Below are positions 25,181 through 25,493 of a stretch of 64,000 nucleotides of DNA, in pieces. The translations under genes were made by a program, and so were the position numbers. The notes beneath the pieces were generated by a model. The model was given only the letters and a program-made list of their open reading frames with translations, made no database searches and was not told where the DNA came from. The stretch spans positions 463 to 64,462 of the forward strand of contig CALWQT010000014.1 of NCBI GenBank assembly GCA_944383765.1. The letters are read 5' to 3'. Each line of letters starts with the position of its first letter. The first letter of the stretch is position 1. This DNA comes from an uncultured Lachnospiraceae bacterium (GTDB lineage Bacteria > Bacillota > Clostridia > Lachnospirales > Lachnospiraceae).

Positions 25181-25209
25181 TTGCTGGATTATGATTGCTA
25201 TGCTATAAT
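25181..25209 (+). promoter_or_regulatory. promoter TTGCTG-17-TATAAT with TGc extended -10 (toxin mRNA)
   Basis: TTGCTG 25181-25186, 17-bp spacer, TGCTATAAT 25201-25209. Confidence 0.55.
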
Positions 25210-25257
25210 GCCAATGTTACCGCCCCGATACTGGCAACAGGAAGGGGGTGCATCATT

Positions 25258-25344
25258 TTGGAAAATCTATTATCTTTTCTTATTGCCGTTGTGGCTGGTG
25301 TGGTTTGCCACCTCATCAACAAATGGTTGGACGGCGATAAATAG
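25258..25344 (+). CDS. Fst-like type I toxin peptide, 28 aa (TTG start)
   Basis: GGGGGTG SD 25244-25250, TTG 25258. (M)ENLLSFLIAVVAGVVCHLINKWLDGDK compares with pAD1 Fst MKDLMSLVIAPIFVGLVLEMISRVLDEEDDSRK: one TM helix plus a charged tail. Confidence 0.6.
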   Translation: MENLLSFLIAVVAGVVCHLINKWLDGDK

Positions 25345-25377
25345 TCGGTAACCAGCCTGTAGATGCTCAACTACATA

Positions 25378-25458
25378 AAGAGAGAAGAACGCCCCGGAGT
25401 TGCGACCTCCGGGGCGTTCGTTTTTGCATCATTTGGATGCTATTATCTTTTCTTGCCT
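25378..25458 (-). ncRNA. candidate antitoxin sRNA (RNA II-like), convergent with the toxin mRNA
   Basis: Starts about 7 nt after the minus-strand TATAAT and ends at the shared terminator. Its 5' part is complementary to the toxin SD/start/codons 1-8 through the direct repeats TGCATCATTT and CTATTATCTTTTCTT. Confidence 0.5.
25387..25425. terminator. bidirectional intrinsic terminator (13-bp stem)
   Basis: GAACGCCCCGGAG-TTGCGAC-CTCCGGGGCGTTC, followed by GTTTTT on + and by TTCTTCTCTCTTT on -. Confidence 0.8.
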
Positions 25459-25464
25459 ACTGGC

Positions 25465-25493
25465 ATTATAGCATATGTAGAATGGATTTACAA
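25465..25493 (-). promoter_or_regulatory. promoter TTGTAA-17-TATAAT with TGc extended -10 (antitoxin sRNA)
   Basis: Minus strand TTGTAA 25493-25488, 17-bp spacer, TGCTATAAT 25473-25465. Shares ATGCTATAATGCCA with the toxin promoter. Confidence 0.55.

Follow-up and report, generated by a model that had tools for sequence, protein, structure and literature searches.

What are the ~315 bases (positions 25181-25493) that lie between the holin and endolysin genes of this gut-Clostridia prophage? The sequence is found in isolates and metagenomes from chicken and bovine gut, and public assemblies of the same prophage carry no gene call in the holin-endolysin gap. We analysed the interval within its window, the whole 64,000-nt stretch of DNA. 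The initial annotation had recognized here an Fst/par-like type I module with an RNA I/RNA II layout, and every architectural feature of that layout is present and kept in homologues. The interval is thus very probably an autonomous par/Fst-type type I toxin-antitoxin cassette, from which both RNAs would be transcribed and whose peptide is expected to be toxic. The cassette belongs to the known Fst/par family of "addiction modules", also found on plasmids and filamentous phages, but had escaped annotation. No second copy of the cassette was found in the 64-kb window. Its parts, with the two neighbouring genes given for context, are as follows.

24556-24804, plus strand: holin gene, upstream neighbour (Pfam Phage_r1t_holin, 49.8 bits)
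25181-25209, plus strand: toxin-mRNA promoter, with -35 TTGCTG (25181-25186), a 17-nt spacer and a TG-extended -10 TGcTATAAT (25201-25209)
25216-25425, plus strand: toxin mRNA of ~210 nt (RNA I equivalent), from the predicted start site to the T-tail of the terminator
25216-25222, plus strand: GUUACCG, 5′ arm of the 5′-3′ closing helix, with its partner CGGUAAC (25346-25352) directly past the stop codon
25221-25226, plus strand: anti-SD CGCCCC, predicted to pair with GGGGGU (25245-25250)
25242-25250, plus strand: Shine-Dalgarno sequence (SD) AAGGGGGTG, which includes GGGGGTG, 7-8 nt upstream of the start codon
25249-25281, plus strand: antisense target on the mRNA, composed of block a (25249-25258, spacer and first TTG base) and block b (25267-25281, codons 4-8)
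25258-25344, plus strand: toxin ORF of 28 codons plus stop, TTG start, encoding (M)ENLLSFLIAVVAGVVCHLINKWLDGDK, one hydrophobic helix with a charged tail
25378-25458, minus strand: predicted antitoxin RNA of ~81 nt (RNA II equivalent), its start placed 7 nt downstream of the -10
25387-25419, both strands: bidirectional intrinsic terminator common to both RNAs, 13-bp stem, loop UUGCGAC / GUCGCAA
25465-25493, minus strand: antitoxin-RNA promoter, with TTGTAA (25493-25488), 17 nt and a TG-extended TGcTATAAT (to 25465)
25580-26395, plus strand: endolysin gene, downstream neighbour (Pfam Amidase_2, 87.6 bits, and choline-binding repeats)

Both promoters had been described as near-consensus. This held for the minus strand, which agrees at 10 of 12 positions, and on the plus strand for the -10 only: the latter is perfect and TG-extended while the -35 matches at 3 of 6 positions, so that this promoter was left unlisted by a consensus scan. 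Taken alone, promoter-like sites occur here at chance density (5 observed, 5.3 expected). We then compared 38 homologous modules. The toxin promoter reached a mean of 5.63/6 for the -10 and 3.13/6 for the -35, with the TG extension in 32 modules; the corresponding values for the antitoxin promoter were 5.84/6, 4.08/6 and 36 modules. The antisense promoter is nearer to consensus than the toxin promoter throughout the family, and its box GCCTACTGGCATTATAGCATATGC is almost invariant. The sequence that the two promoters were said to share is a 15-nt perfect inverted repeat (25199-25213 / 25461-25475). The terminator stem contains 10 GC pairs, carries a 7-nt loop and is followed by T-rich tails on each strand, and many compensatory changes were observed in it among homologues. 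The convergence of two promoters on one 13-bp-stem bidirectional terminator was thus confirmed, and the arrangement is kept in the 38 aligned modules.

We examined how the minus-strand RNA could reach the toxin start. The direct repeats reported at the two sites are perfect: 25249-25258 is identical to 25425-25434 (10/10) and 25267-25281 to 25440-25454 (15/15). The antitoxin RNA (fold energy -35.0 kcal/mol, z = -5.8) is predicted to begin with an unpaired 5′ stretch that is complementary to block b, followed by a small hairpin with the complement of block a and by the terminator. It matched no Rfam family, and no Fst antitoxin family appeared at E <= 10. The proposed pairing with the toxin start was recovered as a duplex of -32.5 kcal/mol (z = -7.5, 500 shuffles) over the spacer, the start codon and codons 4-8. 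When the antisense RNA was scanned against the 64 kb, the toxin start was the only outstanding site besides the DNA complement of the antisense gene itself (25381-25485), also a strong target (-37.9 kcal/mol, compared with a window mean of -11.3, sd 3.4).

Similarly, cognate antisense/mRNA pairs averaged -34.3 kcal/mol over the 38 modules and non-cognate pairs -16.6, and in 34 of the 38 no antisense RNA paired better with the mRNA than the cognate one. In one module (L338), the 5′ half of the toxin has been swapped and the antisense part left unchanged, which results in 3-4 mismatches and indicates that strict cognate pairing is not always maintained. The natural covariation between antisense RNA and toxin start provides a ready specificity table for cross-talk among co-resident modules. 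As for the RNA-RNA pairings on which the module depends (antisense/start region, anti-SD/SD and terminator), all of them covary across homologues by statistics computed without phylogeny correction. The z-score of the antisense/start-region pairing, together with a layout conserved in more than 150 other loci, argues that this combination of features did not arise by chance.

The toxin mRNA is itself strongly structured, with a minimum free energy (MFE) of -76.1 kcal/mol (z = -3.6). Rfam RF02442 (SpF66) matches 25216-25429 on the plus strand over model positions 1-239 of 239, with 58.9 bits (E = 5e-13) for a curated gathering score of 42 bits. Only 3 of 20 other family loci lie above this cut-off, so the model covers the present clade only partly. 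In the consensus mRNA structure 92.6% of cells were paired and 27 double-change pairs were counted, compared with 33-50% and 7-12 respectively in slid controls. The closing helix (RNAalifold helix 1) comprises 7 pairs, with 97% of cells paired and 5 pairs changed on both sides, as exemplified by GUUGUCA/UGACAAC in L007, L009 and L015. A possible 5′ translational lock between CGCCCC and the SD had also been put forward; this pairing is predicted in both the MFE and the centroid fold, and anti-SD and SD covary across the family. GGAGG is accompanied by an upstream CTCC in 26/26 cases and GGGGG by NCCC in 103/108 (Fisher p = 5e-23, a statistic that ignores phylogeny).

Could this transcript be a non-coding small RNA, with the 28-codon ORF left untranslated? 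In favour of such a proposal, RF02442 is classed by Rfam as 'Gene; sRNA', the RNA has extensive structure and the ORF starts here with TTG. We nevertheless hold it to be highly improbable. A strong SD stands at an ideal distance from the start, and the ATG, GTG and TTG starts of homologues all fall in one alignment column. An ORF of 26-42 codons is kept in 121 distinct peptide sequences in which K22, W23 and D25 (K-W-x-D) are invariant, in a sample biased by search patterns in which the SD and the KW(L)D codons were set beforehand. Accordingly, the invariance of the SD in the second alignment (A2) follows from its inclusion in the pattern. Entropy at the three codon positions was 0.88, 0.40 and 1.00 bits, the second position being the most conserved: the toxin ORF carries coding signal. 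Finally, expressing the homologue from pneumococcus proved toxic (PMC2887945).

The peptide combines a helix of high hydropathy (residues 4-20, Kyte-Doolittle mean 2.7) with the tail NKWLDGDK. This is what is expected of the Fst/Ldr superfamily: ~30 aa, one transmembrane helix and a charged C-terminus. The family consensus reads SFLxSVxAGVxxYYICKWLD, where the small residue A13 is kept at 90% or more. The tryptophan that follows the helix, W23, is invariant in 65 aligned peptides, and a conserved tryptophan is named for Fst/Ldr toxins in the legend of Fig. 2 in PMC2887945. Also conserved in the superfamily is the A-P-x-x-x-G(C) motif, whose proline kinks the helix (PMC8309996); the window peptide reads I-A-V-V-A-G-V-V-C at this place, and almost all relatives are without proline. 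The search with Fst family models, proposed initially as a check, gave no match above cut-off. Pfam PF13955 (Fst_toxin) scored 17.3 bits for a cut-off of 36 (E = 0.0047, residues 11-24), and only 1 of 65 family peptides matched it at E < 0.01. NCBIfam NF033608 (type_I_tox_Fst, cut-off 26 bits) did not match the window peptide, and its weak matches to 4 of 65 relatives were all below cut-off (best E = 9e-5). Similarly, NF047374 (CD_typeI_toxin, cut-off 60 bits) gave no match to the window peptide and 21.3 bits for the best relative, and a PDB profile search with the peptide family returned nothing meaningful, the Fst NMR entry not being matched.

These elements can be assembled into a model. 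The promoter with a perfect TG-extended -10 and a weak (3/6) -35 would produce an mRNA of ~210 nt for a 28-residue, single-helix membrane peptide. This mRNA alone is predicted to be translationally silent, since its SD would be paired with CGCCCC, close to the 5′ end; the GUUACCG / CGGUAAC helix between 5′ and 3′ parts would close it. The stronger convergent promoter would give rise to the antisense RNA of ~81 nt, ending at the same bidirectional terminator. Two blocks in the 5′ part of this RNA would be complementary to the spacer plus start codon and to codons 4-8, and its 3′ part would be the full complement of the mRNA terminator; pairing of the two RNAs would then block initiation. Judging by analogy from pAD1 par and the prophage systems of C. 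difficile, the antisense RNA should decay faster than the mRNA, and cells from which the element is lost would then make toxin and stop growing.

Homologous cassettes were found at more than 150 loci on viral contigs, genomes, small plasmids and an inovirus, with the layout conserved from promoter to promoter. True cassettes make up 57 of 61 viral-contig matches and at least 104 among the 120 genome matches listed (species-representative genomes); 4 plasmids and 1 inovirus complete the set. The plasmid carriers are cryptic plasmids of 3-6 kb in which the neighbouring genes include Rep3 initiators. A blastn search of a phage collection found no tailed phage, the only match being one of 32-52 nt in two 'bajarodino virus' records (PQ006183 and PQ006166). 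We considered the PQ006183 match to be spurious and rejected this idea, as the record (L342) holds a complete cassette. Since small plasmids and an inovirus carry the same cassette, its most likely role is maintenance of the carrier element.

The cassette occupies a variable cargo slot. It is present in only 6 of the 80 closest r1t-holin loci; in L226, L230 and L246 the lysin directly follows the holin, without cassette, and in L198 two unrelated genes occupy the same holin-lysin gap. With its own promoters and terminator, present or absent among close relatives, the cassette is a phage 'moron'. Upstream of the lysin, we also asked if the cassette terminator could be unique in uncoupling this gene from late transcription. 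This was rejected: a similar terminator-like hairpin with a T-run lies just upstream of the lysin RBS both in L198, which is devoid of the cassette, and in L187, which carries it. The position inside a phage lysis cassette, initially judged unusual, is not a one-off and recurs in many phages. The holin-cassette-lysin order, all in the same orientation, was observed in 20 of the 57 viral-contig modules, although many of these phages are close relatives, so that the 20 loci do not represent independent events. The holins beside the cassette are of at least three types (r1t, Phage_holin_4_1 and an 87-aa two-helix protein), and the catalytic domains of the lysins comprise Amidase_2, GH24 lysozyme, M15 and CHAP.

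This recurrence with several holin and lysin types raises the question of whether the pair is wired into phage lysis. Late read-through from the holin side would bring sense RNA in excess over antisense RNA, and the peptide, produced along with the holin, would help to depolarise the membrane or to time lysis. There is a precedent in hokW-sokW, which acts ahead of S/R lysis and raises Sp5 release twofold (PMC8621323), and type I toxins have long been likened to holins (PMC2887945). We consider this role quite unlikely here. The cassette is in opposite orientation between holin and lysin in L009, L050 and L060 (probably also in L040 and L064), and lies past the lysin in four loci. No lysis gene is nearby in 98 of 102 genome loci among the matches listed, nor on the plasmids or the filamentous phage, and the low occupancy of the closest holin loci is equally unfavourable. 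A search for targets of the antisense RNA at the starts of the holin and lysin genes found none. Moreover, terminator-like hairpins flank the cassette, which therefore looks insulated. It is likewise improbable that the recurrent holin-cassette-endolysin arrangement is more than a neutral cargo slot, with the Fst-like peptide and its antisense RNA serving many Clostridia phages as a third lysis component, timed by RNA. Were the lysis role true, the peptide would be an auxiliary depolariser or a lysis clock on phages and an addiction module on plasmids.

A second function that could be envisaged for the pair is defence of the lysogen: a superinfecting phage would shut off host transcription, the short-lived antisense RNA would be depleted and the toxin would abort the infection. 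Prophage moron slots typically carry defence genes, and a cargo of general use could be expected to spread, as the cassette has, to many unrelated mobile elements. Abortive infection is among the three roles generally proposed for toxin-antitoxin systems (discussion of PMC7699646), and plasmid hok-sok reportedly lowers T4 plating (cited in PMC8621323). Presence on 3-6-kb cryptic plasmids beside Rep genes is, however, more simply explained by plasmid addiction, and we regard a defence function as unlikely. Maintenance of the carrier element is the role that we retain as most likely. Repeated adjacency to lysis genes nevertheless offers a tractable route to what type I toxin-antitoxin systems do in prophages, whether maintenance, defence or help in lysis.

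Are such cassettes expressed? In two gut metatranscriptomes, contigs of related family members reached a word depth of 100-300 and flanking pieces 2-3; these are assembled Logan contigs, which carry neither strand nor read ends, and the high-depth contigs come from relatives 90-95% alike and not from this copy. The clade is large and yet nearly invisible to annotation: curated protein models miss it, and Rfam labels the mRNA family as sRNA. Of ten peptides looked up exactly in a collection of 15 billion proteins, one was present, labelled 'hypothetical'. With a profile built for the clade, many toxin genes would be recovered, and the RF02442 label would be put right. To our knowledge, very few type I systems have been described in anaerobic gut Clostridia outside C. 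difficile; the present cassette is a clean example there of a par-type RNA-controlled toxin.

We finally compared the cassette with known systems. The type I systems of C. difficile phiCD630-1 and phiCD630-2 (CD0977.1-RCd11 and others) resemble it in their small membrane toxins, their convergent antisense RNAs and their location in gut-Clostridia prophages, and 18 of 65 family peptides are weakly similar to the NCBIfam CD_typeI_toxin model. These C. difficile prophage systems stabilise plasmids and maintain the excised prophage (PMC7699646). However, their toxins are longer (~50 aa) and come from another protein family (peptides of the cassette family reach 21 bits at most, for a cut-off of 60), their antisense overlap geometry differs, and no placement between holin and lysin is stated (PMC7699646). 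The hokW-sokW pair of Shiga-toxin prophage Sp5 (E. coli O157) is likewise a type I system of a temperate phage with a membrane-peptide toxin, and contributes to lysis and phage release (PMC8621323). It differs from the cassette by its Hok toxin family, its Gram-negative host, its mok-coupled translation and its RNA architecture.

SprA1 (PepA1)/SprA1AS of Staphylococcus aureus shares with the cassette an Fst/Ldr-family peptide, of 30 aa in SprA1. The distance from the helix Gly to the tryptophan is presumably 9 residues in SprA1, as from G14 to W23 in the cassette peptide, and is taken as a lead only. In contrast to the cassette peptide, the SprA1 tail is basic and not acidic, its gene is located on a pathogenicity island, and it has the P-x-x-x-G-C motif with proline (PMC8309996).

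Much of the architecture is shared with pAD1 par of E. faecalis. Both have convergent genes with one shared intrinsic terminator, an mRNA of ~210 nt, a one-helix peptide of ~30 residues with an acidic or charged tail, and occurrence on plasmids. The pAD1 antisense RNA is ~65 nt long, compared with ~81 nt predicted for the cassette. The antisense RNA of the cassette has, however, no detectable sequence homology to that of pAD1, and the Pfam Fst score stays below cut-off; the cassette family has Ala, Ser or Val in place of the helix-kinking proline and an invariant K-W-L-D past the helix, and the 5′ end of its mRNA pairs directly past the stop codon. As in the cassette, the two direct repeats of par lie at both RNA 5′ ends with complementarity over the initiation codon, and the SD is held in an intramolecular stem-loop with a further helix involving the mRNA 5′ end (PMC8309996). 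Toxicity of the peptide, neutralisation by the antisense RNA and stabilisation of the replicon have been shown for pAD1 par (PMC8309996).

The closest relative found is the Fst-A/Fst-B pair of S. pneumoniae (sRNAs F66/F67, srn502/503; RF02442). F66 corresponds to TIGR4 2086087-2086325, in the SP2168-SP2169 interval, and is Northern-positive (PMC3395615); this interval is the fcsR-adcA locus, for which Fozo et al. demonstrated that Fst-B is toxic and that an antisense RNA of 65-75 nt is made (PMC2887945). Its neighbour F67 is annotated as an Fst-family toxin (PMC12323649). According to the TIGR4 coordinates and flanking genes, RF02442 is thus the fst toxin mRNA of pneumococcus, which Fozo et al. 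2010 validated experimentally. Unlike the cassette, the pneumococcal copies are chromosomal, in tandem and species-conserved between fcsR and adcA, and are not phage-borne. The Rfam SpF66 consensus translates to MSLILELVLTIIADVIAGIILYFVCKWLDGKE, with the same C-K-W-L-D-G ending as in the cassette peptide.

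Reading of positions 24900-25800 confirmed what the initial annotation had observed: every element that it listed is present. The cassette and its neighbours are arranged as follows:

24556-24804: r1t-type holin, first in order, preceding the 88-codon gene
24866-25132, plus strand: 88-codon gene between holin and cassette, no Pfam or NCBIfam match
25181-25209, plus strand: toxin promoter, -35 TTGCTG at 25181 (3/6 match), 17-nt gap, perfect extended -10 TGcTATAAT ending at 25209
25249-25258: block a, with an exact copy in the same orientation at 25425-25434, inside the minus-strand unit
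25258-25344, plus strand: toxin ORF of 28 codons, TTG start, AAGGGGGTG upstream at the proper distance
25267-25281: block b, with an exact copy in the same orientation at 25440-25454, inside the minus-strand unit
25387-25419, both strands: GC-rich 13-bp hairpin/terminator with T-rich tails (terminator scan)
25493-25465, minus strand: antisense promoter, TTGTAA (25493), 17 nt, TGcTATAAT (ending at 25465), by direct reading
25580-26395: endolysin (Amidase_2, choline-binding repeats), after the cassette
past the endolysin, opposite strand: host cotJB and cotJA

The terminator was indeed reported on both strands, the TTG-initiated frame and its Shine-Dalgarno sequence (SD) are in place, and the start-region text said to recur in the minus-strand transcript consists of two exact blocks. 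Of the 'two near-consensus promoters', both -10 boxes stood but the plus-strand -35 did not, and because of this poor -35 the plus promoter was absent from the generic scan list. A perfect inverted repeat of 15 nt is common to the two promoters, which converge on the hairpin between them. Since promoter-like sites occurred at chance density in the consensus scan (5 found, 5.3 expected), single motifs prove nothing; the case for the cassette rests on the combination of elements and on their conservation.

The predicted plus transcript, the toxin mRNA, runs from ~25216 to ~25425 (210 nt) and the predicted minus transcript, the antisense RNA, from ~25458 to ~25378 (81 nt). The mRNA fold (-76.1 kcal/mol, z = -3.6) contained the proposed 5′ lock, pairing of CGCCCC (25221-25226) with the SD, in MFE and centroid structures alike. 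In its predicted fold (-35.0 kcal/mol, z = -5.8), the antisense RNA has an unpaired 5′ tail followed by one small hairpin and then the terminator. RNA-RNA interaction prediction gave -32.5 to -37.9 kcal/mol for the duplex of its 5′ 40 nt with the toxin start region (z = -7.5 against shuffles). Across the 64-kb window (mean -11.3, sd 3.4) this was the sole outstanding target, the RNA's own DNA complement at 25381-25485 aside, and the next best reached -24.6 kcal/mol. No second copy of the cassette was found in the window.

The plus strand at 25216-25429 matched RF02442 (SpF66_sRNA, Rfam) over its full length with 58.9 bits (E = 5e-13; gathering score 42 bits), with onset exactly at the predicted transcription start; the element is a member of this family. 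The RF02442 consensus translates to a 32-residue peptide with the C-terminus CKWLDGKE, which makes RF02442 a family of toxin mRNAs, mislabelled in Rfam as an sRNA. In S. pneumoniae TIGR4, F66 is an RNA of 239 nt, positive on Northern blots (2086087-2086325, between SP2168 and SP2169; PMC3395615); the adjacent F67/srn503 carries the annotation of an Fst-family type I addiction-module toxin (PMC12323649). Between fcsR and adcA, Fozo et al. reported two Fst homologues in tandem; they observed an antisense RNA of 65-75 nt and found Fst-B toxic (PMC2887945).

The search with the Fst family model, suggested in the initial annotation, came out negative at protein level: Pfam Fst_toxin matched the window peptide weakly (17.3 bits, E = 0.0047; cut-off 36 bits) and no NCBIfam model matched it. 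Similarly, none of 65 representative family peptides reached any curated cut-off; below cut-off, matches were obtained with Pfam Fst (1/65), Pfam Ldr (1/65) and NCBIfam Fst (4/65), and the C. difficile type I toxin model matched 18/65, all weakly. The small residue of the Fst/Ldr motif A-P-x-x-x-G (PMC8309996) is kept and its proline absent, while K-W-x-D after the helix is invariant in cassette-family peptides. As no cut-off was reached and the proline is missing, these results do not place the peptide in the curated protein families.

By blastn, we recovered the entire cassette, promoter to promoter and unannotated, on four plasmids (a 5.6-kb Waltera intestinalis plasmid, a C. perfringens plasmid, a rat-gut cryptic plasmid and a Veillonella plasmid); the window's TTG start is ATG in three of them and TTG in the Veillonella plasmid. 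A DNA pattern of SD, gap and K-W-L-D codons hit 61 viral contigs, 57 of which encode a family peptide. The same pattern gave at least 120 loci in species-representative genomes; among the matches listed, 104/120 were true and most lay in Lachnospiraceae; Oscillospiraceae, Veillonella, Blautia, Roseburia, Dorea, Lacrimispora, Catenibacterium and Coprobacillus were represented as well. A second pattern with SD GGAGG added 72 viral loci. A complete intergenic cassette (1221-1560; peptide MDIIATFLMTVTAGVICHIVCKWLDRHDKGNK; nhmmer E = 7e-55), unannotated in the record, was also present in PQ006183.1 ('Bajarodino virus 15', Inoviridae), an 8.5-kb circular genome from rodent faeces filed as a filamentous phage. 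We recovered at least 121 distinct family peptides of 26-42 residues; only one of ten looked up was present in a 15-billion-protein collection, as 'hypothetical protein', and public assemblies of the same prophage hold no gene call in the cassette gap. The cassette is thus unannotated and belongs to a large clade missed by current protein models.

Some elements carried double cassettes, in tandem in L031 (4419-4512 and 4746-4835), L052 and L108 (4094-4182 and 4425-4513) and ~3.8 kb apart in L078. The L031 and L052 pairs combine one GGAGG and one GGGGG cassette, and the tandems recall pneumococcal Fst-A/Fst-B. Among the fetched loci, Rfam also reported RT-14 and RAGATH-21 RNAs on viral contigs (L007 973-1114, L027 443-529) and, on the C. 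perfringens plasmid (L002 2449-2550), a THF riboswitch upstream of a folate ECF transporter S component.

In two public gut metatranscriptomes, assembled contigs of related cassettes, 90-95% alike over the toxin ORF, had a word depth of 100-300 against 2-3 for flanking pieces, so members of the family are transcribed in gut communities. The contigs represent relatives rather than the window copy and say nothing of strand or transcript ends.

We then compared pairing across the family. For 38 distinct modules, the mean predicted pairing energy between the cognate antisense region and the 42 nt that follow the SD was -34.3 kcal/mol, against -16.6 kcal/mol for antisense regions of other modules, and the cognate partner ranked first in 34 and second in the remaining 4. 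The SD lock followed SD type: GGAGG modules have upstream CTCC in 26/26 informative cases and GGGGG modules NCCC in 103/108. In the mRNA consensus structure (RNAalifold), 92.6% of cells were paired (33-50% with slid partners), 27 pairs were changed on both sides (7-12 in slid controls) and the covariation score was 0.43 (0.11 or less in slid controls). The helix that stood out most clearly pairs GUUACCG at the 5′ end with CGGUAAC just past the stop codon, and whole-helix swaps such as GUUGUCA/UGACAAC were seen. Codon position 2 was the most conserved (0.40 bits versus 0.88 and 1.00), and both promoters were conserved, the antisense one being consistently the stronger. These statistics ignore kinship and the search patterns fixed parts of the sequence; despite both biases, the covariation signal is large and consistent.

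One phage locus with a different tail module (L338 2250-2880, compared with window 24780-25600) is identical to the window from mid toxin ORF through the lysin, while its toxin promoter, 5′ UTR and start region differ, which places a recombination breakpoint inside the cassette. Its unchanged antisense RNA has 3-4 mismatches to its target.

Up to ~26400 the window is a tailed prophage. In the 88-codon gene, 14 of 17 listed substitutions relative to a related isolate contig fall at third codon positions and indels are multiples of three, so this is a real protein-coding gene; no homologue was found in 80 related holin loci. Among 57 viral-contig modules, the cassette lay between holin and lysin in the same orientation in 20, in the opposite one in 3-5, and just past the lysin in 4, with r1t, Phage_holin_4_1 or an 87-residue two-helix protein as holin and Amidase_2, GH24 lysozyme, M15 or CHAP as lysin. 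This recurrent placement is the sole feature beyond the ordinary and, with hokW-sokW as precedent (PMC8621323), makes help in phage lysis a possible function, compatible with other roles. However, of the 80 viral loci closest by holin, only 6 had the cassette; in some of the 80 the lysin directly follows the holin, and L198, a related phage whose holin (81% identity) and lysin (74% identity) are the same, has two unrelated small genes in the gap. The holin-lysin gap is therefore a slot for varying cargo, of which the cassette is one item, a classic 'moron' pattern. The evidence favours a permissive slot over functional wiring into lysis. Lysis genes were near the cassette in only 4/102 genome loci among the matches listed, other neighbours being HTH regulators, integrases and Rep3 plasmid initiators.

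A perfect 14-bp palindrome, TTGCGAYRTCGCAA, stands at 25136-25149 and 9351-9364 (0.01 copies expected in the window by chance) and in 35/265 loci; in other phages it often directly precedes the cassette and, in cassette-free L198 (2387-2400), the lysin gene. Its half-site TTGCGAC/GTCGCAA is also the cassette terminator loop; the palindrome may serve as a phage operator or as a recombination hot-spot marking module boundaries. A terminator-like hairpin with T-run precedes the endolysin start by 10-50 nt (window 25512-25531; in phage loci L187 and L198 just before the lysin RBS), with and without cassette alike, which suggests that phages of this group express the lysin through antitermination or from a separate promoter.

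A 73-codon minus-strand ORF (26302-26523) overlapping the lysin 3′ end begins like CotJC/Mn-catalase (MWVYEKRLQYPVKIKNPDPKIAQFIMSQYGGP...), continues into lysin antisense and is called Mn_catalase publicly. The prophage thus appears integrated in cotJC, a sporulation gene that immediately follows cotJA-cotJB; the remaining half of cotJC would lie beyond the window's left end. Adjoining the cotJ operon, a 73-codon plus-strand ORF (27186-27407) encodes a very Asn/Cys-rich peptide (…CCNCNCNNNNNNNNNAFQRGFNAGYNDGFNAGYNSGYNDGY…CCCNKCC) that could be a spore-coat component. The host part otherwise holds an ordinary 6S RNA (29484-29660, plus, 64.5 bits) and tRNA (34093-34166, plus).

The identical cassette is found on 3-6-kb plasmids, tailed prophages and a filamentous phage, and in both orientations in lysis cassettes. 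Given such varied carriers and either orientation, maintenance of the carrier element would be the most economical role, one demonstrated for type I systems of C. difficile prophages (PMC7699646). Abortive-infection defence is another possible role, compatible with the others.

The interpretation as an Fst/par-like type I toxin-antitoxin module with RNA I/RNA II layout is supported: the five RNA features defining par of pAD1 (PMC8309996) were all found, and the cassette is therefore taken to work like par. The toxin mRNA would be self-locked; an abundant, probably short-lived antisense RNA would first meet it at the complementary terminator and then zip over the toxin start region, and only when antisense supply ends would toxin be made. 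Like pAD1 par, the cassette has convergent genes, a shared terminator and two 5′ direct repeats over the start codon, and an SD-sequestering stem-loop and a helix with the mRNA 5′ end are likewise predicted in it.
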